The translations under genes and the position numbers were made by a program. The notes beneath the pieces were generated by a model. That model had not been told where the DNA came from and ran no database searches. It worked only from the letters and a program-made list of their open reading frames with translations. This document shows positions 10,745 through 30,504 of a stretch of DNA of 38,384 nucleotides, one piece after another. Source of the DNA: a bacterium (GTDB lineage Bacteria > Patescibacteriota > Minisyncoccia > Minisyncoccales > UBA1441); NCBI GenBank assembly GCA_029559515.1, contig JAKQBO010000009.1:1-38384 (forward strand), read 5' to 3'. Every line of letters starts with the position of its first letter. The stretch's first letter is position 1.

Positions 10745-11731
10745 TTAAAAACTAAGATAAGTTCCTACTGAATAGCGAGCTAACGGATTTGTTGCCCCTC
10801 TGACGTCAAAGTGCAGATGGCATCCGGTTGACCGTCCAGTTGTGCCCATTCGGCCAATCTGCTGTCCTTGAGCAACGCTCTGGCCAGCCTTCACCCATAT
10901 CTCTGAAAGATGCCCGTAATAGGTAACTACTCCGTTAGGATGGAGGATTTGTACTCTATTTCCTCCGATACTAATGTATCCGGCTCGCTGGACCGTTCCG
11001 GCGGCCGCAGCATAAATCGGAGTACCGCATTGGTTCGCAATATCAATTGCATTATAATGGTGTAGCCCCTGGGTGATGCGACCAGAGGTCGGACGGATAA
11101 AATAAGAAGAGGCTACCGTTGACTGGGTGCTGATTTGAGGCGTGGTCAGTTGCTTGCCTCCGGGAATGATCAAAACGTCTCCAATATATATTTCATTGGC
11201 ATCACTTATCTGATTGAAAGAAAGAATTGCTGCCTCCGAAACTTTATAAGCGCGAGCAATGTGGCTGAGTGTTTCGTTTTTCCCGACTAAATGTAGCGCT
11301 CCTGAAACCGGCAAGATAATTAAGCTATCACCCTCTTTTAAGGTATTATTACGGTTAAGGTCGTTCGCCCAAGAGATCGTGTCAGCTGAAATTCCGAACC
11401 TTTCAGCTAGCCCAGAAACAGTGTCGCCGGACTGAACGACGTAGTTAAAGATTTGGCTTTGATAGTCATAGCCGCCAGCCACCACCGTGCCCAGAGCCTG
11501 ACTGGTCACACTGGGGGAGGTATAAACCTGAAGGCTGGACTGCTCAATTAAACTCAGATGAGAAAAATCAAAACTCGCCGTCTTATCCAAAGCTGGAATG
11601 AACTCGCTAGAAGAGCTTAGTTCATATTGATCAAAAACCAACTCGGACGGCGAGACCGGCCAAACAGCGGTTATTAGTAACCCTATCGCAAGAGTAAGAA
11701 AAGCACCAACTACTCTTTTTGACAGATGCAT
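10745..11731 (-). CDS. LysM (x2) + M23 family peptidoglycan endopeptidase
   Basis: N-terminal signal/TM; YVVQSGDTVSGLA and HLVGKNETLSHIA LysM repeats; HYNAIDIA, YYGHL and GCHLHF M23 zinc motifs. Confidence 0.92.
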   Translation of the reverse strand: MHLSKRVVGAFLTLAIGLLITAVWPVSPSELVFDQYELSSSSEFIPALDKTASFDFSHLSLIEQSSLQVYTSPSVTSQALGTVVAGGYDYQSQIFNYVVQSGDTVSGLAERFGISADTISWANDLNRNNTLKEGDSLIILPVSGALHLVGKNETLSHIARAYKVSEAAILSFNQISDANEIYIGDVLIIPGGKQLTTPQISTQSTVASSYFIRPTSGRITQGLHHYNAIDIANQCGTPIYAAAAGTVQRAGYISIGGNRVQILHPNGVVTYYGHLSEIWVKAGQSVAQGQQIGRMGTTGRSTGCHLHFDVRGATNPLARYSVGTYLSF

Positions 11732-11741
11732 GACGTTGACT

Positions 11742-11770
11742 AATTTATCTAAATCGAGGCCTTATGTCAA
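11742..11770 (-). promoter_or_regulatory. Promoter TTGACA-N17-TAAATT for the LysM-M23 gene
   Basis: Perfect -35 at 11770-11765 (inside the first codons of rsmA) and -10 at 11747-11742, 10 nt before ATG 11731. Confidence 0.6.
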
Positions 11771-12612
11771 ACAAGTTATCCCCAATCGAACCTAATCTAG
11801 CTAACCACACTAGAAATTTGCTGAAGAAATACCAGCTGCGACCCAATAAACGTCTTGGGCAAAACTTTTTAATTGATGACCGCGTTTTAAATGATCTTCT
11901 TCAGGCAGCGGAGCTGACTTCTCAGGACACCGTTTTAGAGGTCGGTTCCGGCTTAGGCACCTTAACCCGGGCTCTCGCCCGCCGAGTTCGAAAGGTTATC
12001 TCTTTGGAAAAAGACCGCCGGCTAAACGATATTCTGGCCTCCGAATTAAATGAATTTGACAATGTTTCTATTCTCAATCAAGACATTCGGACTTTTCTGT
12101 CTCAAAAAGACATCCTCTTCGATAAAGTGGTGGCCAATCTGCCCTTTTATCTGACTTCGCCCCTAATTACCGGGTTGATGAAACTTTCGCCGCCTCCTTC
12201 CCTGATGGTTCTAATGGTTCAAAAGGAGGTGGCTGAAAGGATTTGCGCCCAGCCACCCAAGGCCAACCGAATGGCTGTTCTCTGCCAGATCCAGGCTAGG
12301 TGCCGGCTGGTTCGCCAGGTGCCGGCTCGGAGTTTTTGGCCCGCTCCCGAGGTAGACGCTGCCATCCTGAAGATGAACACATCTGGGATATCGCCCGATC
12401 CGCTTTTAGAAAAATTGGTTAATGCCGGTTTTCGTTCCCCTCGGAAGACCCTAGCTAACAACCTCTCTTCTTTTCCCGGCTTCAATCAAGAAATATTGGC
12501 ACAATGCAACCTAAACCCTAAAGTTCGAGCGGAGGCCTTGACTTTACAAGACTGGAAACATCTTAAAAATTGTTTTCTCGGCCAAAAAAATGTTATAATC
12601 AGGCCAATATGA
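11764..12612 (+). CDS. rsmA: 16S rRNA m6,2A dimethyltransferase RsmA/KsgA
   Basis: KRLGQNFLID, VLEVGSGLG, VVANLPFY, MVQKEVAERI, FWPAPEVDAA, RKTLANNL, RAEAL. Confidence 0.95.
   Translation: MSNKLSPIEPNLANHTRNLLKKYQLRPNKRLGQNFLIDDRVLNDLLQAAELTSQDTVLEVGSGLGTLTRALARRVRKVISLEKDRRLNDILASELNEFDNVSILNQDIRTFLSQKDILFDKVVANLPFYLTSPLITGLMKLSPPPSLMVLMVQKEVAERICAQPPKANRMAVLCQIQARCRLVRQVPARSFWPAPEVDAAILKMNTSGISPDPLLEKLVNAGFRSPRKTLANNLSSFPGFNQEILAQCNLNPKVRAEALTLQDWKHLKNCFLGQKNVIIRPI
12591..12599 (+). promoter_or_regulatory. Extended -10 (TGtTATAAT) for the T4SS-like operon, within the 3' end of rsmA
   Basis: Perfect TG-N-TATAAT 9 nt upstream of ATG 12609; TTGTTT lies 18 nt upstream of the -10 hexamer. Confidence 0.6.
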
Positions 12613-15170
12613 AAAAGAAAACCTTCAGAAGAATTTGTTTTCTTTTGATTGCTATTCTGGCGGTGGTTTTATTTATTGCCCCTGAATTTGTTGGACAAGC
12701 CGAAGCTGACACAATATACGAGAATATCCCAATTGTAGGAGGGCAGGGCGAAGCACTTCCTTTCTGGGCTTGGATTAAAAGACTTGTCCAGGATTTCTTT
12801 TGGTCTCTCCTCTCGTTAGTGTTATTGGTGATTAATTCGGTTTTTCTTGGAGCATTGGCTGTTGCTGAGATGCTCTTTAACGTCATCGCCAGTCCTGGCT
12901 TTATTTCTGAATCATTTACCGGTCCTGACAACCCCTTTGTTTACCCGAACTGGGTTCTGATCCGTGATTTGGCGAATATTGGTATTATCCTGGGCGTTGT
13001 TTTTTGCGGATTGAAAATGGCCTTTGGTCTCGATAGCCGTGCAACGAAGAAGAGCCTAGTTACTCTCATTGCTTTAGCTTTTTTGATCAACTTTACACCT
13101 GTTTTACTCGGCCTTTTAATCGACGCGGCTCAAATTGCCATGAACCAATTTATGGGCCCGGGGTTGACTCAGACGACCGGCATGGCTTCGGGGGTAATGA
13201 AAGCTTTCGCGAATATAAGAGATATTGGAGAAAACCAGATGGTCGCCTTTATTCAGATGTTAACCATGGGAGCAGTCTGCTTGTTTTTGGCTTTTATATA
13301 CTTTGTTTTGGCTATTGTCTTCCTGGTTCGCTACATCGTCCTCTGGGTTTTAGTAATTCTTTCGCCACTGGCCTTTTTAGCCTACGCTTTTAAAGGTGGT
13401 CAGAAGATTTGGAATATGTGGTGGTCTAATTTTATTAGCTGGACTTTTATTGGCGTCCCCATTGCCTTTTTTGTCGCTTTGGCTGGCTGGATGTACGGCT
13501 ATGGCCAGCCTTTATGGGATACAACCGCCCGAAATATGGCTCTTCGAATAAGCGATGAGGGATTGGCTGGAAGTGGCGTTATTTCGTCTGAAGTTTTTGC
13601 GCCCATCTTCCCCGGCATATTAATTGTGATCGGGTTCATGATCAGCCTTAATATTGCCCCGGCTTTCGCTAAGACGGTCATGGATTATACCAAGAAAGGC
13701 GCTCATGGTGCTGCGGCCTGGAGCTGGGGCAAAGTTAGATACCGTACCCGCGATCTTCGAGACAAGAGTAGAAGAGAGGTCCACGCCCGGCACGTTAAGG
13801 AAGACGCTCAAGCTCTGGGCATCAACACTGCCGGCTGGGATGACCCTAAAAAGAGTTATGCTGTACGCGCTCAGGTGGCGAAAGAGCTGCAAGAAAGCAA
13901 CCAGGCTAAAGGAGCGCAGAAGGCTCATGCTGCCAGGTATCTCGACGTTCAGCAAAAGATCGATGAACGCAAGCTGGAGCACTCTCGATTCGCTAAGAAG
14001 TTAAAAGATGCTAGTGAAGAAGAGCTTGATGCTCTGATTTATCAGCCCACGCCTCAGCTTGTGCCGCACACCAAGACCGGGGTTGCCAAAAAGAGGGCTC
14101 TGGCTTTACAGGAAGCCATGAACCGGGATAAAGGCAAGGCCCTGAAAAAGTTCAAGAACCTTGCCTCGTTAAGCGAAGAAGAGATCTTACAGACAGCAGG
14201 TGCTTTTGCTAGCCTGGGGCCGGCTTATCAGGGCACCCTTGAAAATTTTCTGGTTGCGGCAAGCGGCAAGCATGGCAAAACAATTAAAGAGCATGAAGAA
14301 GCGCTCGGCATTGAGAAAGGATCCCTCGATAAGGCGATAAAGAAGCTTAGGGCCGAAGACAACGAGCTCTTGGCTCATGTGTACCAAAATGCTTCAGAGG
14401 AAAACCAACGGCTTCTTCTGGATAATTTGATTGAGGCCGATACCAAGACAATTATTAGCACTATCCGCCGATTAAAGGCAGAAGAGAGAGGGCCTTTTGC
14501 CTTTAAATTAAAAGAGGCTGCTGAAAGAGCCGGTGGCGTCAAAGCAAAAAATTTCCAACATACAGCAAGATTTCTTAATGCACAGTGGTATCTTACCGAC
14601 TATGAAAAAGATCTCACTCCAGAGGCCGACCAATCAAGGATGAAAATCAAACAGATAGTAGAACGGGCTAAGGTGATAGAAAAAGAGACAGACCAGGGCA
14701 AGAGACAGAAAGAGGTTGCTGAAATTGTTTCTAAAATCATCTCTTCGGACAATGAGCAACGATCAGAAATTATGAACCGCATAGCGCCCGTGGCTCCTTC
14801 GGTTCATCAAGAAGCTCTACAGGAAACCATAAGGAAAGAATTAATTGGCCGCGCTAAGCAGATTAGGCGTATGAAAGACGATCCCCGAATGGAGCAAGAA
14901 AGCAAAGACCTCTCGGCTAAGCTTGCCGAGGACTTAAAGAAGATCGGCCCAAAGCAATGGCAAGAATTCCTTAAGGAAGATTTAATCGAGCGCGTTTATG
15001 AATTCCAGCAGAAGATAAAAAACGCCAAGACTTTGGAAGAAAAGAAGAAACTAGGTAATCGCATGATGCAAAGAGATATCCTGGATGAGATTAGCCTTCT
15101 TAATTCTAAAGACCAAAAAGAGATTACTGATCTAATAAACAAAATTTATGATCAAGAAATCCCGGCATAA
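12609..15170 (+). CDS. VirB6/TrbL-like polytopic membrane protein with a long charged C-terminal tail
   Basis: WVLIRDLANI..., LINFT...LIDAA, and LVRYIVLWVLVILSPLAFL...W..WW motifs typical of VirB6/TrbL-like proteins; position upstream of prgI/virB4. Start set at ATG 12609 (ATGA overlap with the rsmA stop). Confidence 0.72.
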   Translation: MKKKTFRRICFLLIAILAVVLFIAPEFVGQAEADTIYENIPIVGGQGEALPFWAWIKRLVQDFFWSLLSLVLLVINSVFLGALAVAEMLFNVIASPGFISESFTGPDNPFVYPNWVLIRDLANIGIILGVVFCGLKMAFGLDSRATKKSLVTLIALAFLINFTPVLLGLLIDAAQIAMNQFMGPGLTQTTGMASGVMKAFANIRDIGENQMVAFIQMLTMGAVCLFLAFIYFVLAIVFLVRYIVLWVLVILSPLAFLAYAFKGGQKIWNMWWSNFISWTFIGVPIAFFVALAGWMYGYGQPLWDTTARNMALRISDEGLAGSGVISSEVFAPIFPGILIVIGFMISLNIAPAFAKTVMDYTKKGAHGAAAWSWGKVRYRTRDLRDKSRREVHARHVKEDAQALGINTAGWDDPKKSYAVRAQVAKELQESNQAKGAQKAHAARYLDVQQKIDERKLEHSRFAKKLKDASEEELDALIYQPTPQLVPHTKTGVAKKRALALQEAMNRDKGKALKKFKNLASLSEEEILQTAGAFASLGPAYQGTLENFLVAASGKHGKTIKEHEEALGIEKGSLDKAIKKLRAEDNELLAHVYQNASEENQRLLLDNLIEADTKTIISTIRRLKAEERGPFAFKLKEAAERAGGVKAKNFQHTARFLNAQWYLTDYEKDLTPEADQSRMKIKQIVERAKVIEKETDQGKRQKEVAEIVSKIISSDNEQRSEIMNRIAPVAPSVHQEALQETIRKELIGRAKQIRRMKDDPRMEQESKDLSAKLAEDLKKIGPKQWQEFLKEDLIERVYEFQQKIKNAKTLEEKKKLGNRMMQRDILDEISLLNSKDQKEITDLINKIYDQEIPA

Positions 15171-15194
15171 TAGACCTAATCAACCTTAAAAACC

Positions 15195-15614
15195 ATGGAT
15201 AAATTAAGCCGCCGCAGCAATCTAAGCCACATTGAACTAATGAAGACGATTGATCGCCTCCCCCCAGCTTTGGGTGACGCTTATCATTCGATTGAAATGG
15301 TTGATGTTATTGGAAACATCGCTCGGCGTTATAAACTTAACCACGAAGAAGAGTGGGAGCTCTTAGGAATTGTTTACGATGTTATCCTGGGGCTACTGCC
15401 TCCGCCAGCCGTTGAGACTGAAATTAAAAATCGAGTCCGGCTAGAGCCTGAAGAAGCTGGCTTTGTTTCAGGTGAGCTTGACGCTTTCATATTCAATCAC
15501 ATTCGATCAGCATTGAATAAGATTTACGGATTAGAGAAAGCATCAAAAGAGGCAGAAGCAAAGAGTCTTCCGGATAAGAACACCGCTGACCCATATCGTG
15601 AGTCCATTGAATAA
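15195..15614 (+). CDS. Hypothetical protein with C-terminal DPYRE motif
   Basis: Intact ORF within the operon; LGLLPP...EIK and a terminal DPYRESIE resemble conserved CPR hypotheticals. Confidence 0.75.
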   Translation: MDKLSRRSNLSHIELMKTIDRLPPALGDAYHSIEMVDVIGNIARRYKLNHEEEWELLGIVYDVILGLLPPPAVETEIKNRVRLEPEEAGFVSGELDAFIFNHIRSALNKIYGLEKASKEAEAKSLPDKNTADPYRESIE

Positions 15615-15616
15615 TT

Positions 15617-16036
15617 ATGCAGTATCTCGTTCCCCAATTTATTGAGCGCGAGTCTAAAATCGTCGGGCCTTTGAGCTTTAAACAGGTTATTTTTCTGGGT
15701 GCAGCTGGCGGACTAAGCCTGGCGGTCTGGTTTCTTTTGCCGACAGCCGTCGCCATGGTTCTTATCTGCCTGATTGTAGCCGCCGCCGTTGCTTTAGCCT
15801 TTTGGAAGCCACACGGGCGCCCGCTGGCTGAAATTATTGTTTCCGCCTTCCGCCATTCCATTTCGACTCGCCAATACTTATGGCGGAGACAATCAATTGA
15901 AGACCTGCCGATAATTAGCAGCGAAGACGAAAAGACAAACGATGTCAAACTTGACCTCGAAGACCAGCAGGCCTTGATGGAGCTTTCACCGCGGAGCCGG
16001 TTGGAAAAACTAAAAACCCGAATCGAATCTAAATAA
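15617..16036 (+). CDS. prgI: PrgI family (VirB3-like) protein
   Basis: MQYLVPQFIERESKIVGPLSFKQ, two TM helices, then GRPL...P/R.YLWR. Confidence 0.85.
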   Translation: MQYLVPQFIERESKIVGPLSFKQVIFLGAAGGLSLAVWFLLPTAVAMVLICLIVAAAVALAFWKPHGRPLAEIIVSAFRHSISTRQYLWRRQSIEDLPIISSEDEKTNDVKLDLEDQQALMELSPRSRLEKLKTRIESK

Positions 16037-16038
16037 TC

Positions 16039-16692
16039 ATGAAAGGCTCGAGCCAACAATTTTTACCAATCGGCGAGATAAAAGAAGGGGTCCTCGTCCT
16101 TAAAAGTGGCGGCCTGAGGGGGATTTTAATGGTGTCGTCAATTAACTTCGCCTTAAAGTCGTCCGATGAACAGCAGGCCATTATTTATCAGTTTCAAAAT
16201 TTCCTGAATTCTCTTGATTTTACCACTCAAATTTTAGTTTACTCTCGGCGAGTGAATATGGCCGGTTATTTGGAAAAGCTAAAAAATCTAGAAGAGCGGC
16301 AAACCAACGACTTAATCAGAGCCCAGACGGCTGATTACCGCCGTTTTATTAAGCAGGTCTTAGAGAAGGGCGATATTATGAGTAAGACTTTTTATATTGT
16401 GGTTCCTTATACCCTGACTGAGGCTCAAGGAACGGTTTCAGCCACTCGAGAAATTTTCCGAAAAAAGAAGACTTCGCCAACCGGCTCCCGGATATCAAAC
16501 GAAGCATTTAATCGCGCCCGTTCCCAGTTGATGCAAAGAATGGAATTTGTCGCCATTGGTCTGAGACGGTGCCAGTTAGGGGCCGTTCCTTTGACCTCGC
16601 CGGAGCTAATTGAAATGCTTTGGGCTTTACACCACCCAGACTCAGCTGAACGGGGTTATTATCCGTCTATTATGCCGGAAATTATTAATTGA
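16039..16692 (+). CDS. TraC-like / VirB4-associated protein
   Basis: SQQFLPI.EIKEGVLVLK.GG.RGILMVSSINFALKS.DEQ.AII..FQNFLNSLDF...KTFYIVVPY, located between prgI and virB4. Confidence 0.7.
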   Translation: MKGSSQQFLPIGEIKEGVLVLKSGGLRGILMVSSINFALKSSDEQQAIIYQFQNFLNSLDFTTQILVYSRRVNMAGYLEKLKNLEERQTNDLIRAQTADYRRFIKQVLEKGDIMSKTFYIVVPYTLTEAQGTVSATREIFRKKKTSPTGSRISNEAFNRARSQLMQRMEFVAIGLRRCQLGAVPLTSPELIEMLWALHHPDSAERGYYPSIMPEIIN

Positions 16693-16694
16693 TT

Positions 16695-18509
16695 ATGTTA
16701 GATAAAATTAAGAAAAAACTTACCAAGGGAAGTAAGCCCGAGACTACCGGGGCCGGCAGTAGATTTGTCACCCTCCATGATTTAATTGCGCCTCCCTCGA
16801 TTCAAGTTAATCAGAACAGTATTGATTTAAGGGGGCGGCTAATTCGGACTATGTTTGTCTTCTCTTATCCCCGCTATCTGTCGGTTGGTTGGCTAACCCC
16901 GATTATTAACATGAATCGGCCGATAACAATCTCCTTTTTCTTTCACCCCGTTGAAACAGCCCCTATTCTTAAGAAACTCAGGAAAAAGACAACTGAAATC
17001 CAAGCCGAATTAATGGAACGCGAAGAGAAGGGCCTGGTCCGTGATCCGGAGCTAGAAACTGCCTTTCAGGATGTAGAAGATCTCCGCGACAAGTTGCGCA
17101 CTGCTCAGGAAAAAATGTTTCAGGTTGGTATTTACTTCGCCATTATGGGGAACAACGAAGAAGAGCTGCGCGATACCGAGGTGGAAATTCGTTCTATCTT
17201 AGAGTCCCGACTGGTTTACACCAAGCCAGCTTCCTTCCAACAAAAAGATGGGTTTTTAACTTGTTCGCCCTATGGTCTTGACGAGCTAATGATCCACACC
17301 CCTATGAATACCTCTCCCCTTTCCAGTGTTTTTCCTTTTGTTTCATTTGACTTGAGTTCTAATGAGGGCATTCTCTATGGTATTAATAAACATAATAATT
17401 CCCTAGTGCTTTTTGATCGCTTTTCACTGGAGAACGCTAACATGGTGATCTTTGGAAAATCAGGCGGCGGAAAAAGTTATGCCGCGAAACTAGAAATTCT
17501 GAGACTGATGATGGAAGGGATAGACGTAGTGATCGTGGATCCGGAGAATGAATATGAGTTTTTGAGCGATGCAGCTGATGGTTCTTTTGTCAAAGTCTCT
17601 CTTAACTCGACTAGCCACCTTAATCCCTTTGATTTACCTAAGATCGGAGTAGATGAAAAACCAGAAGACGCCCTGCGACGCAATGTTGTTGAGCTGGTCG
17701 GCCTATTTAGAATTATGTTGGGCGGACTGACACCCGAAGAAGATGCCATCATTGACCAGGCAATTGTTGAGACTTACGCCGCTAAAGACATTACGCCCGA
17801 TAACAACTTTGACAGAGCTCAGCCTCCCCTAATGAATGATTTCCAGGCTGTTTTAGAGAGCATGGAGGGGGCCGAGTCTCTCAGCCAGAGAACGCGTAAA
17901 TTTACCCGGGGCAGCTATGCCAATTTCTTTAATAACTACACCAATGTCGACATTGATCGCCATTTGGTTGTTTTTGGCATTCGTGATATGGAAGACGAAC
18001 TACGGCCCATGGCGATGTATATCATTCTCCACCACATCTGGAATGAAATAAGAGGAGAGTTAAAGAAAAGAGTTGTGGTCATTGACGAGGCCTGGGTGGT
18101 GATGCAGTCCCCAGATGGAGCTTCATTTCTTTTTGGGATGGCGAAGCGGGCCAGAAAGTACTGGCTTGGCCTGACAACTATTACCCAAGATGTCAATGAC
18201 TTTCTGGGCTCTCCTTATGGGGTGCCGATTCTCAACAACTCCTCCCTCCAGCTACTCATGAAACAGTCGCCGGCTTCAATTGATATTCTAGTTAAAACCT
18301 TTGCCTTAACTCTGAGCGAAAAACATCTAGTACTATCAAGTAATGTTGGCGAAGGGCTCTTCTTCGCCGGATCAAAGAGAGTCGCAGTTCAGGTTGTTGC
18401 TTCATACGCTGAAGACCAGATCATTACTAGCGACCCAGAGGAGGTAATTAAAATTAAAGAAGCGCAACGCGCTCGCAGGAGAGATGAGTTTATTAGGGGG
18501 TGGCGCTAA
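16695..18509 (+). CDS. virB4: VirB4-like type IV secretion ATPase
   Basis: Walker A GKSGGGKS, VDPENEY, LNPFD, Walker B VVIDEAW, RARKY, TQ motif, GEGL. Confidence 0.9.
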   Translation: MLDKIKKKLTKGSKPETTGAGSRFVTLHDLIAPPSIQVNQNSIDLRGRLIRTMFVFSYPRYLSVGWLTPIINMNRPITISFFFHPVETAPILKKLRKKTTEIQAELMEREEKGLVRDPELETAFQDVEDLRDKLRTAQEKMFQVGIYFAIMGNNEEELRDTEVEIRSILESRLVYTKPASFQQKDGFLTCSPYGLDELMIHTPMNTSPLSSVFPFVSFDLSSNEGILYGINKHNNSLVLFDRFSLENANMVIFGKSGGGKSYAAKLEILRLMMEGIDVVIVDPENEYEFLSDAADGSFVKVSLNSTSHLNPFDLPKIGVDEKPEDALRRNVVELVGLFRIMLGGLTPEEDAIIDQAIVETYAAKDITPDNNFDRAQPPLMNDFQAVLESMEGAESLSQRTRKFTRGSYANFFNNYTNVDIDRHLVVFGIRDMEDELRPMAMYIILHHIWNEIRGELKKRVVVIDEAWVVMQSPDGASFLFGMAKRARKYWLGLTTITQDVNDFLGSPYGVPILNNSSLQLLMKQSPASIDILVKTFALTLSEKHLVLSSNVGEGLFFAGSKRVAVQVVASYAEDQIITSDPEEVIKIKEAQRARRRDEFIRGWR

Positions 18510-19035
18510 AAAAAGCCAGGGCGGATTGGAAACATTTACTATCGACATCGCGATTATGTATATTGTCGCCTTTATTTTGGATATGGCCGGAATAATCCTG
18601 GCGGCCATAACCCTTACTATTATCCTAGCTCCGATCGCGATAATCCTTCAATGGATTTTATCTCTCTTGGGTGGTCTGATATTCACCCTCTGGATTGTGT
18701 TTGTGCGGTCACAATCATCTGCCGAAGAAACAAGCCATGAAATTCTCGAGCCAGAAATACCCCAGAAGACAGCTCCTTCTCAGGCGTCATCTCTCGATGA
18801 TTCTGCGCCAAAAAAGCTAAATCAAGCCACCGAAGTACAGCCTACAGTAACGCCGCCTAAAAAACCTCTGGGGAAAAAACCGGGGCTTATGAAAAAATCC
18901 AACCCTTCTTCTTTGTTGATGAAAAAATGGCTGAAGAGAGTTTGCCTCCCCGGGGTGGTTGAGTCAATTCCGATTGTCGGGAAAATATCCTTCACCTGGG
19001 TATTAGCAGTCTATCTTGAGCAAAAAAATGGTTAA
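18484..19035 (+). CDS. Small membrane protein of the T4SS-like locus
   Basis: Hydrophobic N-terminal half, Pro/Ser/Lys-rich linker, C-terminal ESIPIVG..FTW.LAV. Start uncertain. Confidence 0.65.
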   Translation: MSLLGGGAKKSQGGLETFTIDIAIMYIVAFILDMAGIILAAITLTIILAPIAIILQWILSLLGGLIFTLWIVFVRSQSSAEETSHEILEPEIPQKTAPSQASSLDDSAPKKLNQATEVQPTVTPPKKPLGKKPGLMKKSNPSSLLMKKWLKRVCLPGVVESIPIVGKISFTWVLAVYLEQKNG

Positions 19036-21562
19036 GATGCATTTTTTAATAAAAATTTTAATTTTTGCTTTGATTATTTGCCCGGCTAGTGTTCTGGCGG
19101 TGGAAATTCCCAGCGACGATATTGAGACCCTGCCCGAACTGGTTAACACCGTCTTTAGCGTCATATTCGGCTTGTCCGGCATAGCAATCTTCGTTGTTTT
19201 AATAATTGGCGGATTGGGCTATTTAACCGCCGGCGGATCACCGATGTTAATGGCTAAGGCCCGACAAAGGATTATTATGGGCCTGGTTGGATTTGGGTTG
19301 GTTTTTGGCGGCTACCTCATTATCGACCAAATAAATCCTGACATTTTGACCGGAATCTTTACGCCTTGGGATATCGATAACCCCGAGCCGTCCGACCCTC
19401 CAACGATACGGGAACCGGATACTGACACGTATGTCTATCAGGAGATCCCCTTCGGGACAATTTTAGAGACCAAAATATTAGCTAAAAACATAACCTGCTA
19501 TGGGGGAGAAGGGTTGGTTGACTGCCACACTGGGGAGCCGATATTAGAAGAAGAAATTGAGCGGATTATTTATATTATGGCCAAAGAATTCCCTGATATC
19601 TGGGGTGAGGCAACCAAAGAAGACGCCGAATTGGCCTACCTCTGCTACGACTTTGACGACCAGGGAAACTTTACTCAGACCGATCCAATAGGGCACAACG
19701 ACCGGCTTGACTGCATTAGGCGCGTTGTCCAGGCTTTTGAGAGAAAAAGCATGGCCTTAAACAATCAAGTCCTTGAATTAAAAAGACTAACTGAAGCATG
19801 TTCCTGCGGACAGTGTAATTGCGGAGAGTGCGCTGTCTGCGAAGACCCGGCAGAGGTTTGTGGCAACCCTGAGGAATGCGCGCCAGAGGATGAAGCCTGC
19901 TTGCTGGCTATTCAACAGTGCTGGGATTATTGGGAAAACTGTAGTCCATGCGACCCGGCCTATAATAGCACTTGCCCCTGTGGGCAATCCTGCGATGGCG
20001 ATCCATGTGGGGCTCAGCGAGCAGCCATAGACGTTATTCGCCAAAATTTAAACATGGAACAAATCGTTGGAGGACATGATCTGCTCCAAGACAACGAGCT
20101 CGTCAAAGTTTTACCCGAAGATTATGATGAGATGACCTTAATCAACCAGGTGCGCTATCTAGCTAACCGTTTTTTCCCACCCCACATTGCCAGTCTTGAA
20201 GTTGATTTAAGTTATTTAGTTAAGGTCCGGGATATGTATCGAGACCAGTGTAGCTACGGCACTCACCTTTCCCAAGCTAATTTTATGGACTTAATAGCAT
20301 CTCTGGACTCGATTCCTTATGTTGAAACAGAGGTTAACAAGTTTTGTCTTAACGGCAACGAGGCTCGCTGGGGAGAGAGTTGCCCCGAGGAGCAACAAGT
20401 CAGAACAGATTACTGGTGCCACGAATTCAACTGCACCGACTGCGAAGAAGAAGGCGAAGCAAAGCTAGCTTGCGGTGTTTGCAATCTTGACGTTTTAGAA
20501 AAAGGGACTGAGGTGCCTTTTGCTCGGGCCGGTGAAGACAATGTTTCTTACAAGTGTTCCCAATACTATATTAACCAACAAGATGGAGAATTAGACCGGG
20601 AAGCCGACGACGAGCTTGGCATTATGTGCCGTATTCAATCAGATGGCGAACGCTGCCAGGAATCAACCGGCAATCCGGTAACCTTCTACTGTCCTCAGCC
20701 TGAAAGCAATGTTCCGGTCGAAACAACCGAACTAGTCTTAACTCGAGAATTCAACATTGATCACGATGTAGTCAATGGTTACCGAGCTGGCTATATTGAG
20801 CTGGGCCAATTGATTGACAGCAGCCGAGCCTATATCGATGCAATCAGAGCCCCCTTGGTGGGGATGGTTCGGAACGGCGTTCCTAGAATTACCTGTCCTT
20901 CTTTTGATAAAAATGACCCGGATAACCTCTGCCTCTTGTATCTCTTGCCAACGCGATGTACCTGCAATGGCGTCATCCAGACCCAGTACGAACCAGGGGA
21001 TGAATCGCTCTGCAATATCTCTTGCGACACCTGGCACGGCTGTTTGTGTAACGCCTGTGCGGAACCCTGCGATGGCTGCTCTTGTTCAACCTGCCTGCCC
21101 ACTCTTAATCAGCCCGAGGAATATAATCCTTATCCCTGCCCCCAGACTGTTATTAATCAGAGACAAGGCGAAACCACTAATGCTTATGGATTAATCAGGG
21201 AACAGCACGATACTGTTGTTAGCTTAATTCGAGCCACTGGTTTAGCCAACAATCAGCCAAGCCGGACAGAGATGTTTAATCAGCTTCAGGACAGCCAGAA
21301 AAAGTTGCAACGATGCGTTAGTGGCTTCCAGGTTGATTATACTGAAAGAACCGTTGCCCGGGCCGTTAACTGTCGCTATTTGTTGGACAATCAAGCTTTA
21401 GATAAGTGGCAGATTAGTCCCTTTTTCGAAACGTGCTATCCTTATAACAGTGAGAGATTGACCCCTCAGCAGCGAGCTGCCTGTCAGGCTGATCGCAATA
21501 GTCAGGATTGTTTATCTGCTATTCGTAATTTAATGTTTGACTATTTCTGCCTTATAAAATAA
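19028..21562 (+). CDS. VirB2/TrbC-like pilin domain fused to a ~730-aa cysteine-rich extracellular region
   Basis: Signal peptide; pilin motif IIGG..YLTAGGSP....AR.RI....G...YLI...INP; about 53 Cys by manual count. Start at 19028 or 19037. Confidence 0.8.
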   Translation: MVKMHFLIKILIFALIICPASVLAVEIPSDDIETLPELVNTVFSVIFGLSGIAIFVVLIIGGLGYLTAGGSPMLMAKARQRIIMGLVGFGLVFGGYLIIDQINPDILTGIFTPWDIDNPEPSDPPTIREPDTDTYVYQEIPFGTILETKILAKNITCYGGEGLVDCHTGEPILEEEIERIIYIMAKEFPDIWGEATKEDAELAYLCYDFDDQGNFTQTDPIGHNDRLDCIRRVVQAFERKSMALNNQVLELKRLTEACSCGQCNCGECAVCEDPAEVCGNPEECAPEDEACLLAIQQCWDYWENCSPCDPAYNSTCPCGQSCDGDPCGAQRAAIDVIRQNLNMEQIVGGHDLLQDNELVKVLPEDYDEMTLINQVRYLANRFFPPHIASLEVDLSYLVKVRDMYRDQCSYGTHLSQANFMDLIASLDSIPYVETEVNKFCLNGNEARWGESCPEEQQVRTDYWCHEFNCTDCEEEGEAKLACGVCNLDVLEKGTEVPFARAGEDNVSYKCSQYYINQQDGELDREADDELGIMCRIQSDGERCQESTGNPVTFYCPQPESNVPVETTELVLTREFNIDHDVVNGYRAGYIELGQLIDSSRAYIDAIRAPLVGMVRNGVPRITCPSFDKNDPDNLCLLYLLPTRCTCNGVIQTQYEPGDESLCNISCDTWHGCLCNACAEPCDGCSCSTCLPTLNQPEEYNPYPCPQTVINQRQGETTNAYGLIREQHDTVVSLIRATGLANNQPSRTEMFNQLQDSQKKLQRCVSGFQVDYTERTVARAVNCRYLLDNQALDKWQISPFFETCYPYNSERLTPQQRAACQADRNSQDCLSAIRNLMFDYFCLIK

Positions 21563-21568
21563 TCAATT

Positions 21569-23053
21569 ATGCCTAAAAATATATTATTTTTTGCTTTAAC
21601 TGCCTTATTGTTTTTATCTCCATTAGTCGTAGTCGGCGACGCCCAGGTTCGTCAGTTAGAAACAACCTACCCCGACATTCCCGGGGTTGATACCATTGGA
21701 GAAGACGCTACTCTACCGCAATATCTAGAGTATATTTATTATTTCATTATTAGCTTAACTGGGATTGCCGCCTTGATTATATTGATCTGGGGCGGGTTAA
21801 TTTATTTAACCTCAGCCGGTTCGCCCAATAAAATGAAGGAGGGTATTAATCGTATTATTGGCGGACTATCCGGCGTTGCTATTATTTTATTCGCTCACCT
21901 CATTTTAACCACAATCAATCCCCATATCTTTGGCTCAATTACTCAAAAAATAGATCTTCCCGCTGAAGGATATTGCTTAAAAGGAGACCAGGTCTACTGG
22001 CGAGAAGAGTGTCCCGAGACATGGGCTCCTATAAACAATGATACTTGTCAGCAGGTAATCGGCCAAGCTCCTTATACCCACTATAACTGCTGCCGGGTTG
22101 AGAGAATCTATTGTTTCGATCAAAGCGTCAATGATTTGGCTAGAATTGGTTTTATCCCTAAGGAGATAAACTTCCGGAGCAAAGAGCCAAGAATTCACAG
22201 TGTCTTTTTCTTTGAAGAGCCCGATTACCAGGGAGATCAACAGTCTATGATAAACATGAAGAGACAGCTAAACAATGACATTTGGTGGCCGCTTAGTCAC
22301 CTCGGAATTCAGTTTATCAGATCTGTGTATCCAGTAAGGAGAAGCCCCGGGTTTGTTATCTTTCCTACTGACAATTGTTCGTATGATTTTAGCGATTTTA
22401 GTCGCAATATGCCGACTATGGCCTACTCTCGACCAACTTCTCGTTTTGACAAAGAGGCCGTTTCCATATTAAGAGTGCCCCGAGGCGAAGATGAGGATTG
22501 GTTTGATTATGTTTCGTGGGGAGGGGTGTTTTTCTCCTCCGAGGGATATCACGGAGAGTGTCAGATTATTTTTAGCGAAAGGCCTTCTATTCCCGGACAG
22601 GGCCAGAACTGTTTCCTTCCTAGACAGAATTTTCCGAATGCTCAAATTGGCAGTAGAGAGACCCCTCAGAGCGCTTACATCTTTAGACGAAACATCGCTA
22701 ATGATTTTTCAGGCCAAGTCACCTTTTGCCCTTTATTGAATTATGGATCTATAGAGGATCCCAATAATCCGGTTGAATGCCATACTGTTGAAGCTAGTGA
22801 GATTATAAGCCAAAACACAACTGACTCTATCTGGAGAATTAATGATCCGTTAGATCACTGGACGGGAGGAAGACAAGAAAACATTCTTTCTGTAAAAGTT
22901 GACGGAAAATTTCTGGTTGTTCTAAATTCTGGACTAAATTTCACAGGAAGATGTACAGTTATCGATCGAGATACCCCCAATCTAATTGGCTCATATGTTC
23001 TTGGAGACGAAAATCGTGAGATCATGTCCATCGCCATCATCCCCTTACAATAA
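21569..23053 (+). CDS. VirB2/TrbC-like pilin domain fused to beta/gamma-crystallin-like repeats
   Basis: Signal peptide, LETTYP, pilin motif IWGGLIYLTSAGSP...RI.GG..G...LILTTINP; C-terminal FEEPDYQG, FSSEGYHG, NSGLNFTG...SI motifs. Confidence 0.75.
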   Translation: MPKNILFFALTALLFLSPLVVVGDAQVRQLETTYPDIPGVDTIGEDATLPQYLEYIYYFIISLTGIAALIILIWGGLIYLTSAGSPNKMKEGINRIIGGLSGVAIILFAHLILTTINPHIFGSITQKIDLPAEGYCLKGDQVYWREECPETWAPINNDTCQQVIGQAPYTHYNCCRVERIYCFDQSVNDLARIGFIPKEINFRSKEPRIHSVFFFEEPDYQGDQQSMINMKRQLNNDIWWPLSHLGIQFIRSVYPVRRSPGFVIFPTDNCSYDFSDFSRNMPTMAYSRPTSRFDKEAVSILRVPRGEDEDWFDYVSWGGVFFSSEGYHGECQIIFSERPSIPGQGQNCFLPRQNFPNAQIGSRETPQSAYIFRRNIANDFSGQVTFCPLLNYGSIEDPNNPVECHTVEASEIISQNTTDSIWRINDPLDHWTGGRQENILSVKVDGKFLVVLNSGLNFTGRCTVIDRDTPNLIGSYVLGDENREIMSIAIIPLQ

Positions 23054-23054
23054 T

Positions 23055-23516
23055 TCAACTAGCCGGGTAGATCACAATGTGACGCTGATGACCGCGCCCG
23101 CTGCTTTGGCTGTAGACATCCTGCCTTTCGGCCAGAGCAGAGTGAATAATCCGGCGCTCCCAAGCCCACATTGGTTTTAAAGCCTGTGGCTTTTTAGTTA
23201 AGGCAGCCTGATCAGCCGCTGTCCGGGCTAAATCCTCTAGGTATTTGGCTTTCTTTTCTTTATAATTATTAATATCCAGGTCGATAAAAAGATGGCGGCC
23301 GGTCTCTTTGGCCAAAATTTTCTTAATTAAGTTCTGAGTCTCAACTAAAGTTTCGCCTCTTTCACCGATAAAGAAAGGTGCTTCTTCAACCCAAAAAGAG
23401 ATCTTAATGGTATCTGAGTTTATCTCTTCAAACTTAATAGGTGAATCAACATCTAAAAAACTGAAAAACTTTCTGACTTTTTCCTTTATTTTTTCTGTTT
23501 CGGAGGGTCGGAACAT
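23055..23516 (-). CDS. jag: Jag/KhpB (EloR) RNA-binding protein, KH + R3H, without Jag_N domain
   Basis: FIGERGETL, LDINNYK, LKPM.AWERRIIH..L, S.G.G..R.IVI; downstream of yidC. Confidence 0.9.
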   Translation of the reverse strand: MFRPSETEKIKEKVRKFFSFLDVDSPIKFEEINSDTIKISFWVEEAPFFIGERGETLVETQNLIKKILAKETGRHLFIDLDINNYKEKKAKYLEDLARTAADQAALTKKPQALKPMWAWERRIIHSALAERQDVYSQSSGRGHQRHIVIYPAS

Positions 23517-24193
23517 AATGACTTTTTCTTAAGATAATATTGTTGCCCAATCATAAACAGGGTGTTTATTAACCAGTATACTCCAATGACAGCGCTTAAT
23601 CTAGTTAAGACAATAAACGCAAAGGCTGGAAGAAAGTAGACCATATTCTTTTGCCAGCCGCTCTTTTTGCCCGATGTTTCGGCTGTTTTAAGCTGCCAAT
23701 ATTGGATTACCGCAACGACAACAGCCAAGATAATATTCGACTGGACTAGGTCCGGGTTACCGAGAAATGTCAGCTCGGCCGCTTCCAGAGAAGGCGTAAA
23801 AGAATAAAGGTGGCTGTTTAGAGCCAAAACACTTAAGTCTTGAAAGATTCTAAAAATAGCAATAATTATCGGCAACTGGATCAGCGGATAAACAAGGCTT
23901 GATAAAGGGCTGATGTTGTATTTTTTATACAAGGCCATTATTTTTTGAGACTGCTCCGCCGGGTCCTTTTTATATTTTTTCCTAATCTCTTTCATCTCGG
24001 CGTCAATCTTGCTCATCTTTTCTTGGGTTCGGGTGGCCTTCAATGAAATGGGAAAGGTGATCAATTTAATTATTATTGTTACCAAAATAACCGACCAGAT
24101 CAGATCCTGACCGGGAAGATAAACATAAAATAAGATCAGCAGATTAAGAATCGGCTGATAAAGTAAAACATTAAATATATCTCCAATTAACAT
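23486..24193 (-). CDS. yidC: Membrane protein insertase YidC (short form)
   Basis: ILVTIIIKLITFP, coiled-coil hairpin, MALYKKYNISP, PLIQLPI, VYWLINTLF..GQQ; rnpA-yidC-jag synteny. Confidence 0.92.
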   Translation of the reverse strand: MLIGDIFNVLLYQPILNLLILFYVYLPGQDLIWSVILVTIIIKLITFPISLKATRTQEKMSKIDAEMKEIRKKYKKDPAEQSQKIMALYKKYNISPLSSLVYPLIQLPIIIAIFRIFQDLSVLALNSHLYSFTPSLEAAELTFLGNPDLVQSNIILAVVVAVIQYWQLKTAETSGKKSGWQKNMVYFLPAFAFIVLTRLSAVIGVYWLINTLFMIGQQYYLKKKSLCSDPPKQKK

Positions 24194-24197
24194 AAAA

Positions 24198-24530
24198 TTA
24201 GGATAGTTTTAATAAAATGTTTTCCCAGTCTGCTTTCAGTTCCTGATAGCTTGATTTTTCCGAAGATCGTTTGGCAATAATTACAATATCCCCGACTGTT
24301 TTCCCTTCAAGAACTTCGCTTCTTACAATTTCCCTTATTCTCCTTTTTATTTTGTTTCGCTCGGTTGCCTTTTTGGCTACTTTTTTGCTTACAACAATCC
24401 CGACTCTTGTTTTATTTTCCTGGTTTGGACTTATCTTGACTAAAAGAAACTCTCCTCCGACCGCCTTTCCCTGTTGGTAGGTTTTTTCAAATTCTTTTTT
24501 TTTAGTCAAACGATTCGGGCGGGGTAACAT
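24198..24530 (-). CDS. rnpA: Ribonuclease P protein component
   Basis: MLPRPNRL.KKKEF, RVGIVVSKKV.KKATERNKIKRRIRE (RNR-type motif). Confidence 0.95.
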   Translation of the reverse strand: MLPRPNRLTKKKEFEKTYQQGKAVGGEFLLVKISPNQENKTRVGIVVSKKVAKKATERNKIKRRIREIVRSEVLEGKTVGDIVIIAKRSSEKSSYQELKADWENILLKLS

Positions 24531-24547
24531 AATAACTTAACCCCTAA

Positions 24548-24576
24548 AGGTTATCAGTCAAAAAGTCTTTAGTCAA
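24548..24576 (-). promoter_or_regulatory. Promoter TTGACT-N17-TAACCT for rnpA-yidC-jag
   Basis: -35 at 24576-24571 and -10 at 24553-24548, 17 nt before the rnpA ATG. Confidence 0.5.
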
Positions 24577-24606
24577 TTAACTTTTTTTGCCCAAAGTATT
24601 AACATT

Positions 24607-24615
24607 TTATCCCCA
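24607..24615 (+). promoter_or_regulatory. DnaA-box-like 9-mer TTATCCCCA upstream of dnaA
   Basis: One mismatch to TTATCCACA, in the dnaA promoter region. Confidence 0.55.
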
Positions 24616-24622
24616 CCACCTC

Positions 24623-24649
24623 AAAAGCCCCACTATTAAGGGGTTTTTT
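24623..24649 (+). terminator. Terminator-like hairpin upstream of dnaA
   Basis: AAAAGCCCC-actattaa-GGGGTTTTTT. Confidence 0.4.
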
Positions 24650-24692
24650 AGTAGTTCTCTTGATTTTTTAATTGTGGTAAAGTGAGTACACT

Positions 24693-26039
24693 ATGACCAA
24701 GGAAGAGTTATGGCAAGCTGCCCTAGCCCGCCTACAGTTTAGTGTTTCTCGCGCTAATTTTGCAGCCTGGTTTAAAGAGGCGGTTATTCTTGATTGGCAG
24801 GGAGACTCCGTCTCAATTGGTACTCCTAATAGCTTTTCTCAAGAATGGCTAAAGAAAAAATATCATTCAGATATTTTAAAAGCCTTGAACGAAGTCTGCT
24901 CTAAAATTAAAAAAGTAGACTATTTTGTCTCTAAGCAAAACAGAACCAGGGCTGAGGTCAGCCCGCCGGTTCCTGTTAATACCAAGCAAATACAATTTGA
25001 AGAGTTTCAACTCAATCCGAGAACCGGATTAAATACTCGCTATAACTTCAAAGATTTCATTGTTGCTTCTTTTAACGAGATGGCCTTTGCGGCAGCCGAA
25101 GCAGTCGTTCGAGAACCCGGCCGAGCTTATAACCCCTTGTTTGTTTATGGCGGAGTCGGTCTGGGAAAAACCCATCTTCTTCAGGCTGTGGGCAATAAGC
25201 TTGATGAAGAAGATGAAATGAAGATCAGGTATATTTCAGCCGACAAGCTGGTTTCCCAAATTGTTGCCAGTATTTATGAGCGCAGCATCGAGTCGCTCAA
25301 AAAAGAACTTCAACAGCTTGATGTATTAATTGTCGACGATATTCAGTTTATCGCCGGAAAAGAAAAAACCCAAGAAGAGTTTTTTCATGTCTTTAATGCG
25401 TTGTATGAAAAAAACAGCCAGATTATTCTCTCCTCTGATCGCTTGCCAAGCGCGATTCCGGCCCTAGAAAAAAGATTAAAATCAAGATTTGAGGGTGGAA
25501 TGGTGGTCGATATTAGCCGGCCTGACTATGAGAGCCGGCGGGCTATCCTTGAGACTAAAGTTAAAGAGTGGAAAGCCGAGATTGATTCGGAAGTTTTAGA
25601 TTATGTCGCAACTAATATTCAAAACAATGTTCGGGAGCTAGAGGGGGCTTTAAGGCGTCTGATTGCTCATCAAAATATTAAGAAAAATAAATTAAACACC
25701 GAAGTAGCTCAAAAGGTTTTAAAGGATTTAACCCGGACCCAAACTAAATCAGCTTCGCCTCAGAAGATAATTAGCAGCGTGGCTGATTTTTATGATTTAG
25801 ATTTAAAAGACCTGACTTCAGCTACTCGGAAAAAAGATGTTGCTTTTCCCCGCCAGATCGCTATGTATCTACTGAGAAAAGACCTAAAAAAATCATACTT
25901 AAGTATAGGCAACTTATTCGGCGGAAGAGACCATACAACCGTAATTTATGCCTGTCATAAAATTGAGAAGGAAGTTGATCAAGACGGCAGATTAGCTGAT
26001 GAAGTTAGTATGATTCGGCAAAGAATTTATGGGGAATAA
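24693..26039 (+). CDS. dnaA: Chromosomal replication initiator DnaA
   Basis: YNPLFVYGGVGLGKTHLL, DDIQF, QEEFFHVFN, RLKSRF, NVRELEGAL, RQIAMYL, GGRDHTTV. Confidence 0.98.
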   Translation: MTKEELWQAALARLQFSVSRANFAAWFKEAVILDWQGDSVSIGTPNSFSQEWLKKKYHSDILKALNEVCSKIKKVDYFVSKQNRTRAEVSPPVPVNTKQIQFEEFQLNPRTGLNTRYNFKDFIVASFNEMAFAAAEAVVREPGRAYNPLFVYGGVGLGKTHLLQAVGNKLDEEDEMKIRYISADKLVSQIVASIYERSIESLKKELQQLDVLIVDDIQFIAGKEKTQEEFFHVFNALYEKNSQIILSSDRLPSAIPALEKRLKSRFEGGMVVDISRPDYESRRAILETKVKEWKAEIDSEVLDYVATNIQNNVRELEGALRRLIAHQNIKKNKLNTEVAQKVLKDLTRTQTKSASPQKIISSVADFYDLDLKDLTSATRKKDVAFPRQIAMYLLRKDLKKSYLSIGNLFGGRDHTTVIYACHKIEKEVDQDGRLADEVSMIRQRIYGE

Positions 26040-26259
26040 AGCTGAATAACCGGTGGGTAAATATGGTACAATAAAGGGATAAGATTGACCGTTTTTAAAG
26101 CCCTCTATTTTAAACCAGATTTTCTCTCGTGGTTGTCCACCGCCTCTCCCCAAAATAAAATCTTTAAAATTCTTTATCTAAAAGAATTTTCATCTTTTCT
26201 CCCCAGGAAAACTTACCCTAACAACAACTATATATTTAAATAATTAAATTATTATTATT
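26031..26259. other. Probable replication origin (oriC)
   Basis: dnaA-dnaN spacer containing several degenerate DnaA-box-like 9-mers, a CAA/CTA trinucleotide run (about 26218-26230) and a pure A/T tract (26229-26259) next to dnaN. Confidence 0.75.
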
Positions 26260-29785: not shown

Positions 29786-30504
29786 AGTTCGGCATTAAGA
29801 TATACTTCTTGTACGTCGTCGTGATCGCTTAAAGCTTCTAAAAGACGGTTTAACTTTTGCTGGTTGGCTTCATCTAACTGGAGGTTTTTTTGGGGCCGCC
29901 AAATTAAAGAATGTTCTTTAAGCGACAAGCCTGCTTCTTCTAGATGCTTCTTTGATTTTTCTAATTCTTCGGGCTTAACGTAGACAATTAAATATTCTTC
30001 ATCCCATTCAACATCGGTCGCTCCAGCCTCAATGGCTTTTAATTCTAAGTCTGATTTATTTTCTGATGAAGGCGAAACAATTAATTGTCCGGTTTGGACA
30101 AAAAGCCATCGAACTGAACCAGACTCAGCCATCTTTCCACCGTATTTGTTTAAAATACCCCGAACTTCTTCTAGGGTTCGGTTTTTATTATTAGTAATTC
30201 CATCTATTAATAGGGCTGTTTGGCCAGGACCAAAAGCTTCGTAGTTTACCTTAAACCACTCTTCTCGGTCAGCCCCTAGCCCAGCGCCTCGTTGGATCGC
30301 CCGTTCGATGTTTTTATTAGGCATATTAGCCGAGCGGGCCTTGTCAATAGCGTTGCGGAGCTCAAAGTTTGTCTCCGGGTCGGGGCCTCCTTCCCGGGCA
30401 GCGATAGATAATAAGCGAGTCATGCGTGAAAAAACGGCCCCTCTTTTTTTATCTTGAGACTCTTTACGGTGTTTAATAGTTGACCAATGAGAATGTCCAC
30501 TCAT
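29782..30504 (-). CDS. yebC: YebC/PmpR family protein
   Basis: MSGHSHWSTIKHRK, NMP..NIERAI, YEAFGPG, TNNKNRT, DDVQEVY.N. Confidence 0.95.
   Translation of the reverse strand: MSGHSHWSTIKHRKESQDKKRGAVFSRMTRLLSIAAREGGPDPETNFELRNAIDKARSANMPNKNIERAIQRGAGLGADREEWFKVNYEAFGPGQTALLIDGITNNKNRTLEEVRGILNKYGGKMAESGSVRWLFVQTGQLIVSPSSENKSDLELKAIEAGATDVEWDEEYLIVYVKPEELEKSKKHLEEAGLSLKEHSLIWRPQKNLQLDEANQQKLNRLLEALSDHDDVQEVYLNAEL

Follow-up and report, generated by a model that had tools for sequence, protein, structure and literature searches.

Cargo-bearing pilins, one with predicted crystallin domains, in the chromosomal type IV secretion operon of a patescibacterium

Introduction

What does a type IV secretion system (T4SS) do for a bacterium when it stands fixed in the origin region of the chromosome with no relaxase to serve? 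The question is posed by contig JAKQBO010000009.1 of assembly GCA_029559515.1, from a member of the order Minisyncoccales (Patescibacteriota; UBA1441), whose full 38,384 nucleotides form the window analysed here (contig C4 of a genome of 457 kb in 27 contigs, 94.5% complete). Atlas look-alikes of two operon proteins come from Minisyncoccota, and gene order read alongside PMC12102498 suggests the class Paceibacteria. At 12609-23053, between rsmA and a convergent jag-yidC-rnpA block that is followed by dnaA-dnaN, lie eight tightly packed open reading frames (ORFs). This operon is confirmed as real: as a preliminary description of the window had stated, its genes are co-oriented (all on the plus strand, with gaps of -26 to 24 nt) and it ends 1 nt from jag, the two convergent stops being at 23053 and 23055. 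That description saw in it a domesticated apparatus for surface display, host attachment or effector delivery. The last two genes encode VirB2-like pilins fused to large cargo regions, one of which is predicted to consist of beta/gamma-crystallin domains.

The operon is the chromosomal T4SS already published for Patescibacteria (Quinonero-Coronel et al., 2025; PMC12102498). In that survey VirB4 was found in 2,417 of 3,035 assemblies, with TrsD, PrgI, VirB6 and VirB2-like pilins beside it and with dnaA, dnaN, rnpA and ksgA as frequent neighbours; relaxases occurred in only 103 genomes, and coupling-protein homologues mostly lay far from virB4. Since the origin-proximal site and the missing relaxase are already in print, the arrangement in the window is no surprise. 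It has in common with the published system VirB4 with adjacent TrsD, PrgI, a VirB6-like protein and PF18895 pilins, the vicinity of dnaA/dnaN/rnpA/ksgA, the lack of a relaxase, a distant coupling-protein homologue and vertical descent. The main text of that study, however, presents the pilins as small subunits and arrays, and describes neither crystallin or cysteine-rich fusions nor two further products of the present operon, the DxYRE protein and the small membrane protein encoded after virB4. No published account of T4SS pilins with crystallin or cysteine-rich cargo was found in a search that left most subscription papers outside, and the neighbourhood tables of PMC12102498 may list such domains.

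Evidence on the role of the system comes from other members of the phylum. According to Wang et al. (2023; PMC10633639), the T4SS cluster and pilin array are essential if Southlakia epibionticum ML1 is to grow as an epibiont, and a small secreted array of TM7x appears in McLean et al. (2020; PMC7427843). In archaea-parasitising Paceibacteria, T4SS pilins are among the most expressed secreted genes (PMC10936435).

A Pilin With Predicted Crystallin Cargo

Both pilin fusions pass the PF18895 cut-off, so that this part of the preliminary description stands, as do PrgI (PF12666) and VirB4 (NF045971). Each fusion has a signal peptide, two membrane segments with a basic loop between them, and a cysteine-bearing cargo after the hairpin. 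Under the usual topology rule, the signal peptide, the two segments and the basic loop would place the cargo outside the cell.

The predicted model of the second fusion, pilin B, has a pLDDT of 79.3. Foldseek returned 66 matches to it at an E-value of 0.001 or better, all among those listed being crystallins (best E 1.4e-6). With VIA-align, matches covered residues 260-494 (Z 13.2, rmsd 3.1, 169 aligned), 382-493 (Z 11.2, rmsd 1.9, 84 aligned) and 128-259 (Z 9.6, rmsd 2.7, 86 aligned), and 19 of the top 20 rows were crystallin-type by title or aligned to the same domains. The top match of the pilin B alignment against the PDB was Protein S, at E 0.016. A profile of the cargo only, with the hairpin excluded, reached 1,075 clusters at E 0.001; the pilin module is present in 123 of the best 150 of these, and all 13 non-pilin repeat proteins scanned from the remaining 27 match PF00030. 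Pilin B itself has no PF00030 match in Pfam.

Taken together, model and profiles predict that the cargo of pilin B belongs to the beta/gamma-crystallin superfamily, with the two-Greek-key fold. It would share two-Greek-key domains and F/Y-x4-F/Y-x-G motifs with the microbial crystallins (PF00030), such as Protein S and those of Clostridium and Flavobacterium. It differs from them in standing behind a pilin hairpin, in having three domains with insertions, in falling below Pfam detection and in the calcium motif, which is considered below.

Compared with the same-genus orthologue, pilin B is 66% identical in the hairpin and 40-52% in the cargo, which drifts the faster of the two. A pilin combined with crystallin domains was found in 18 of 39 fetched relatives, 10 of which had gone into the profile, and this form is mostly restricted to the order.

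Pilin A and the Variety of Pilin Cargo

Pilin A carries a different cargo, with 53 largely invariant cysteines. Its model is of low confidence (pLDDT 52.6), and within the reach of so weak a model Foldseek gave no match to the cysteine-rich cargo at E 0.001, VIA-align gave generic helical bundles only, and no VirB5-like fold stood among the matches listed. Relatives have cysteine-rich proteins that are secreted on their own and are similar to the second half of pilin A (hhalign 90.8%); these sit at the same place in other families. A two-repeat structure of the cargo is weakly indicated (hhalign 69% over 29 columns, with no BLAST self-match). A pattern scan of the species collection gave 11 loci at which a close relative occurs. 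The start codon of pilin A was corrected to ATG 19028 (844 aa), as that of VirB4 was to ATG 16695 (604 aa); residue numbers of pilin A run from TTG 19016 (848 aa).

Pilin genes occur in all 41 genomes of the order, one to nine in each, in short and long forms. The source genome has five, two short and three fused. The short ones, stand-alone VirB2-like pilins of 116 and 155 aa, lie in tandem after gyrA and a methyltransferase gene at the end of another contig (C5:69-911) and are candidates for the major pilin. The third fusion, on contig C13 (L009:1234-2322) and far from the operon, is a 362-aa protein with two InlB B-repeat-like domains (PF18998). Among 49 proteins scanned from relatives, the hairpin is fused to an M23 peptidase in two (L056:8262-9821 and L077:2-1786) and to a lamin-tail domain in two; the hairpin-M23 fusion is possibly a wall-cutting subunit of the same machine. 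In one relative (G020) a single protein has two pilin hairpins (L071:5956-7431).

The clusters of Southlakia ML1 and TM7x likewise resemble Gram-positive conjugative T4SSs and have pilins without a relaxase. They differ from the window operon in carrying an array of four to six small pilins, whereas the window operon has two giant fusions and the small pilins of this genome are on another contig.

Immobility and Vertical Descent

A single VirB4 locus was found in each of 40 of the 41 genomes of the order, the gene being split over contig ends in two. Neighbourhoods were compared in 40 stretches from 39 relatives. In 26 of these loci jag or yidC comes after the operon, and the other 14 reach a contig edge first; the operon is at the same site in 26/26 informative loci, and dnaA lies within 21/40.

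Trees of RpoB and EF-G, which were searched in 30 of the 41 genomes, could be compared with that of VirB4 over the 27 genomes that have all three proteins. The VirB4 tree has 10 of 24 splits in common with the RpoB+EF-G tree, with one well-supported conflict, and the RpoB and EF-G trees have 9 of 24 in common, with three conflicts; the trees are unrooted, lie within the order and resolve deep branches poorly, and agreement is by split counts. VirB4 therefore agrees with the species markers as well as these agree mutually, and no recent horizontal acquisition is shown. Every tree unites the nine genomes of the source family in one clade (support 1.0). Identity to the VirB4 of the window (0.58-0.85) tracks the corresponding RpoB identity (0.57-0.87). 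GC content of the operon is 0.453 against 0.456 for the genome, and GC3 is likewise at the genome average. These observations support an apparatus that is immobile and vertically inherited.

The claim that relaxase and linked integrase are missing holds beyond the window. Searches of the 94.5%-complete genome gave no match to eight relaxase families (PF13814, PF03432, PF08751, PF03389, PF01076, PF02486, PF07514 and PF18555) and none to the resolvase family; each of these families gave matches in at least one control genome. The sole tyrosine recombinase, presumably Xer, is encoded among housekeeping genes on contig C23, and the 20 largest of at least 60 direct-repeat families include none that borders the operon in the manner of att sites. 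The absence of a coupling protein, in contrast, is true of the window and not of the genome: a VirD4/TrwB-like ATPase of 514 aa, unlinked to the operon (C9:27226-28767), passes the PF10412 and PF12696 cut-offs. Homologues are present in 39/41 genomes, including 30/30 near-complete ones, at about 57-91% identity, and in the only single-contig relative the gene lies 158 kb from virB4. The protein ends in a CxxC-x17-CxxC zinc finger, and the gene ahead of it encodes a 432-aa membrane protein without a family (the two genes are at L001:913-2457 and 2497-3795). Many relatives have a second VirD4-like paralogue of about 800-850 aa.

The nearest conjugative relatives are the MPF-FATA systems (the TrsD/TrsE type of pGO1 and the integrative and conjugative elements of the CD1110 family), with which the window operon shares PrgI, TrsD, a CD1110-family VirB4 and VirB6. 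It differs from them in having no relaxase, integrase or linked coupling protein, in its fixed chromosomal site and in having pilins. To our knowledge, monoderm conjugation systems are generally without pilins.

Core Genes and a Probable Promoter

The features of the locus are collected in Table 1. The first gene had been called VirB6-like, an assignment that stands on weaker evidence, through orthologues. The window protein has seven hydrophobic segments in residues 1-355, by hydropathy, and no family match of its own, NCBIfam included; 4 of 21 orthologues match VirB6 PF04610 (best E 5e-5), and their profile has TrwI, a VirB6 protein, as its top PDB match (E 0.017). The gene described as TraC-like proved to be TrsD-like, matching the N-terminal part of VirB4 models. 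In the NF045971 model (752 positions) it covers 11-120 and the VirB4 protein covers 186-733, the one corresponding to the front of the model and the other to its back, so that the ATPase is split in two. A TrsD profile had no match in the PDB. VirB4 scores 367 bits with NF045971 (cut-off 325), matches PDB 4ag5 at E 2e-59 and has the motifs GKSGGGKS (Walker A) and VVIDEAW (Walker B); its best NCBIfam model is that of the CD1110 family.

Table 1. Features of the operon and its surroundings in the window.
Feature	Position	Strand	Basis
LysM-LysM-M23 peptidase, divergent from rsmA, outside the operon	10745..11731	-	Pfam
rsmA/ksgA, housekeeping neighbour upstream of the operon	11764..12612	+	TIGR00755
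Extended -10 promoter-like box TGTTATAAT, within rsmA 3' end, 9 nt before first start codon	12591..12599	+	sequence
Extended VirB6-like polytopic membrane protein, 853 aa, long hydrophilic tail	12609..15170	+	hydropathy, PF04610 in orthologues, TrwI
Soluble 139-aa protein, conserved C-terminal DxYRE motif	15195..15614	+	conservation; no family
PrgI (VirB3-like), 139 aa, two membrane segments	15617..16036	+	PF12666 E 2.4e-13
TrsD-like protein, 217 aa, counterpart of VirB4 N-terminal region	16039..16692	+	NF041427 E 3e-7
VirB4 ATPase, 604 aa, Walker A and B intact	16695..18509	+	NF045971, PDB 4ag5, motifs
Small membrane protein, 183 aa, hydrophobic hairpin, conserved C-terminal E-x-I-P...W motif	18484..19035	+	alignment; no family
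Pilin fusion A, 844 aa: VirB2-like hairpin behind a signal peptide, then a region of 53 cysteines for which long helices with cysteine-rich tips are predicted	19028..21562	+	PF18895, model
Pilin fusion B, 494 aa: VirB2-like hairpin (~21713-21916) behind a signal peptide, then three domains predicted to be beta/gamma-crystallins	21569..23053	+	PF18895, model
Predicted crystallin cargo of pilin B: residues ~128-259, 260-375, 380-494	21950..23050	+	VIA-align
jag, yidC, rnpA (minus) and dnaA, dnaN (plus), origin-region neighbours	23055..27387	.	Pfam

Two operon proteins have no family in Pfam, PDB profiles or Atlas. Among the 40 fetched loci, 25 have an orthologue of the DxYRE protein upstream of VirB4. 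Of the 26 loci that extend as far as jag or yidC, 20 have an orthologue of the small membrane protein behind VirB4. Both counts were made in the same loci from which the profiles were built. D132 and Y134 of the DxYRE protein are invariant in the alignment, and the gene is single-copy in the genome. Two matches of this protein to designed toroids were judged to be chance. The motif was also considered as a genome-wide export signal and rejected, as it is C-terminal in only one real ORF of 2747 frames.

In many relatives, the VirB6-like gene and PrgI are separated within the operon by an SPFH/band-7 gene that lies on the opposite strand and is absent from the window (for example L050:15473-16879, with similar loci in L052, L054, L056, L064, L066, L068, L072 and L075); 10 of 12 such ORFs scanned match PF01145. 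In one relative (L077, G030) the VirB6-like and DxYRE genes are duplicated in tandem.

The stop codon of rsmA and the start of the first operon gene overlap as ATGA (-4 nt), and the successive gaps after the first gene are 24, 2, 2, 2, -26, -8 and 6 nt. Translational coupling to rsmA had been proposed; the overlap is real, and dependence on rsmA translation is doubtful because of a conserved extended -10 box ahead of the first gene. This box is a perfect extended -10 of the form TGnTATAAT, which occurs 30 times in the genome, and 7 of 19 relatives have a TA(T/A)AAT box 6-11 nt ahead of the orthologous start codon. Such a box 9 nt from the first gene makes it likely that the operon has its own promoter and a short-leader transcript, which would begin near 12605. 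The gene upstream of the operon is rsmA in just 8 of 40 loci. A generic promoter and terminator scan gave counts at chance level. Many of the 30 genomic TGnTATAAT sites have an ATG about 6-16 bases downstream, which suggests short-leader or leaderless transcripts.

The Chromosomal Surroundings

The start of dnaA lies 1.6 kb beyond the operon. In the AT-rich dnaA-dnaN gap, four weak DnaA-box-like sites were seen where 0.65 would be expected, and gene order together with these sites suggests that oriC is near dnaA; GC skew within the window gives no origin position. The rnpA-dnaA gap (24531-24692) is only 162 bases long and without an rpmH (L34) gene. A minus-strand block near the origin, at 30501-33578, encodes a lamin-tail protein, a PilB-type secretion ATPase and a degenerate DHH protein; the lamin-tail domain is thus found both here and as pilin cargo in relatives.

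On the other side of the operon, the LysM-M23 gene adjoins rsmA in 4 of the 8 loci with an upstream rsmA. None of the comparisons made here links it to the T4SS, whose wall hydrolase the preliminary description had suggested it could be. Beyond it, a gene at 8661-10691 encodes a charged coiled-coil protein of 676 aa with a single C-terminal membrane anchor and contains a near-exact short tandem repeat (10236-10328).

A Proposed Host-Contact Pilus and Its Alternatives

The explanation preferred here, which is held tentatively and as something short of an even bet, is that a vertically inherited T4SS core builds a host-contact pilus on which cargo-fused minor pilins display adhesive domains. Assembly of conjugation pili is the work of VirB4 together with VirB3 and VirB6, which transfer VirB2 pilins out of the membrane and into the pilus. 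On this pattern, signal peptides would route the pilins to the membrane, where the disulfide-rich cargo would face outwards and the lysine/arginine loop inwards. The membrane platform that extracts them, a task of VirB4 in conjugation systems, would consist of the VirB6-like protein, PrgI and both parts of the split ATPase, TrsD and VirB4. The shaft would be made up of the 116-aa and 155-aa pilins of C5, with the fusions inserted sparsely or at the tip. The crystallin and cysteine-rich domains would then bind the host surface, cargo exchange between lineages would tune host choice, and transport through the contact, if any, would use the unlinked VirD4-like ATPase. A bolder version, possible and more doubtful, makes the patescibacterial T4SS a surface-display machine in which the VirB2-like hairpin is an address tag, VirB4 fits the pilus with cargo that is already folded and disulfide-bonded (wall peptidases and crystallin or cysteine-rich helical domains), and a swap of cargo sets which bacterium or archaeon is held and breached.

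Several results weigh against such a display pilus. The calcium motif of microbial crystallins is N/D-N/D-x-x-S/T-S, and in its strict form it is absent from the cargo of pilin B; among pilin-fused crystallin relatives it occurs in 46 of 123, against 7.4 in shuffles. The shared crystallin fold reveals no ligand. In 301 genomes drawn across the phylum, the crystallin profile matched only 3, the source genome included, so that crystallin cargo is not a core part of the system. The cargo of pilin A is conserved as well as its hairpin, which is unlike a fast-changing adhesin. No pilin module lies between VirB4 and jag in 9 of the 26 loci that reach jag. Comparison of the hairpin with the archaeal conjugation pilin 8dfu gave middling scores (Z 7.6 and 7.1), among unrelated helical hairpins. 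Polymerisation of pilins with 370-730 aa of cargo would have to be assumed, and no pilus for a patescibacterial T4SS was seen in the literature examined, where PMC12857230 treats one as a possibility.

In a contending explanation, itself unlikely, the fusion hairpin is a membrane anchor only, and the cargoes are ordinary surface adhesins or wall enzymes that are expressed along with the T4SS and never enter the pilus. Large cargoes (up to 1708 aa in relatives), a cysteine-rich module that is both pilin-fused and separately secreted, a third fusion far from the operon and the protein with two hairpins would all be at home there. The hairpin is nonetheless recognisably PF18895 and the best-conserved part of pilin B, and fusions cluster beside virB4 in 17 of the 26 loci reaching jag. 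Import is also improbable as the main role of the machine. It would involve a conduit like the archaeal Ced/Ted systems for DNA import, taking up host DNA or macromolecules, powered by VirB4 and the VirD4-like ATPase and bridged by the pilins, and it could coexist with the display pilus. Uptake has been proposed for the patescibacterial T4SS (PMC12102498), Ced/Ted are likewise domesticated, relaxase-free T4SSs with VirB6-, VirB4- and VirB2-like parts, the VirD4-like ATPase is nearly universal in the order, and the best T4SS-related structural match of the hairpin is an Aeropyrum pilin. Matches of VirB4 and the VirD4-like ATPase to the archaeal CedB and CedD models are weak, however, and at 48 of 700 and 26 of 600 bits fall far short of the cut-offs; the window system differs further in its cargo-fused pilins; and the coupling-protein homologue is non-essential in Southlakia (PMC12102498).

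From the preliminary reading of a domesticated apparatus, display and attachment fit an immobile, vertically inherited system whose pilins bear predicted surface domains, whereas effector delivery remains only as a rival of quite low probability. Export into the host, through the VirD4-like ATPase or, in a Ptl-like manner, from the outer side of the membrane, is suggested in PMC10633639 and PMC7427843, and a conserved coupling-protein-like ATPase is indeed present; yet the searches yielded no candidate effector family and no export signal common to several proteins, DxYxE standing at the C-terminus of one real ORF only, and the variable genes of the operon encode membrane-anchored proteins and not soluble effectors. 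Hardly any credence can be given to a mobile or recently acquired conjugative element beside the origin. PrgI, TrsD, VirB4 and VirB6 are homologous to monoderm conjugation genes, and a relaxase could be missed in an assembly of this completeness and contig number, but the searches for relaxases and resolvases were empty, the tyrosine recombinase is on another contig, and the constant site, the trees and the base composition all speak against it.

Implications for Patescibacteria

The existence of the operon, its position and the absence of a relaxase were already in print; what is new relative to the literature found is the cargo-bearing pilins. In the only Patescibacterium tested, Southlakia, the T4SS is essential (PMC10633639). 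Pilins with cargo amount to named soluble domains that give a handle on the role of this machine, and they lead one to predict that the range of hosts should go with the type of cargo. If the fused pilins do enter the pilus, a conjugation-type pilus would serve for protein display, which would be a reason for tiny genomes to keep the machine.

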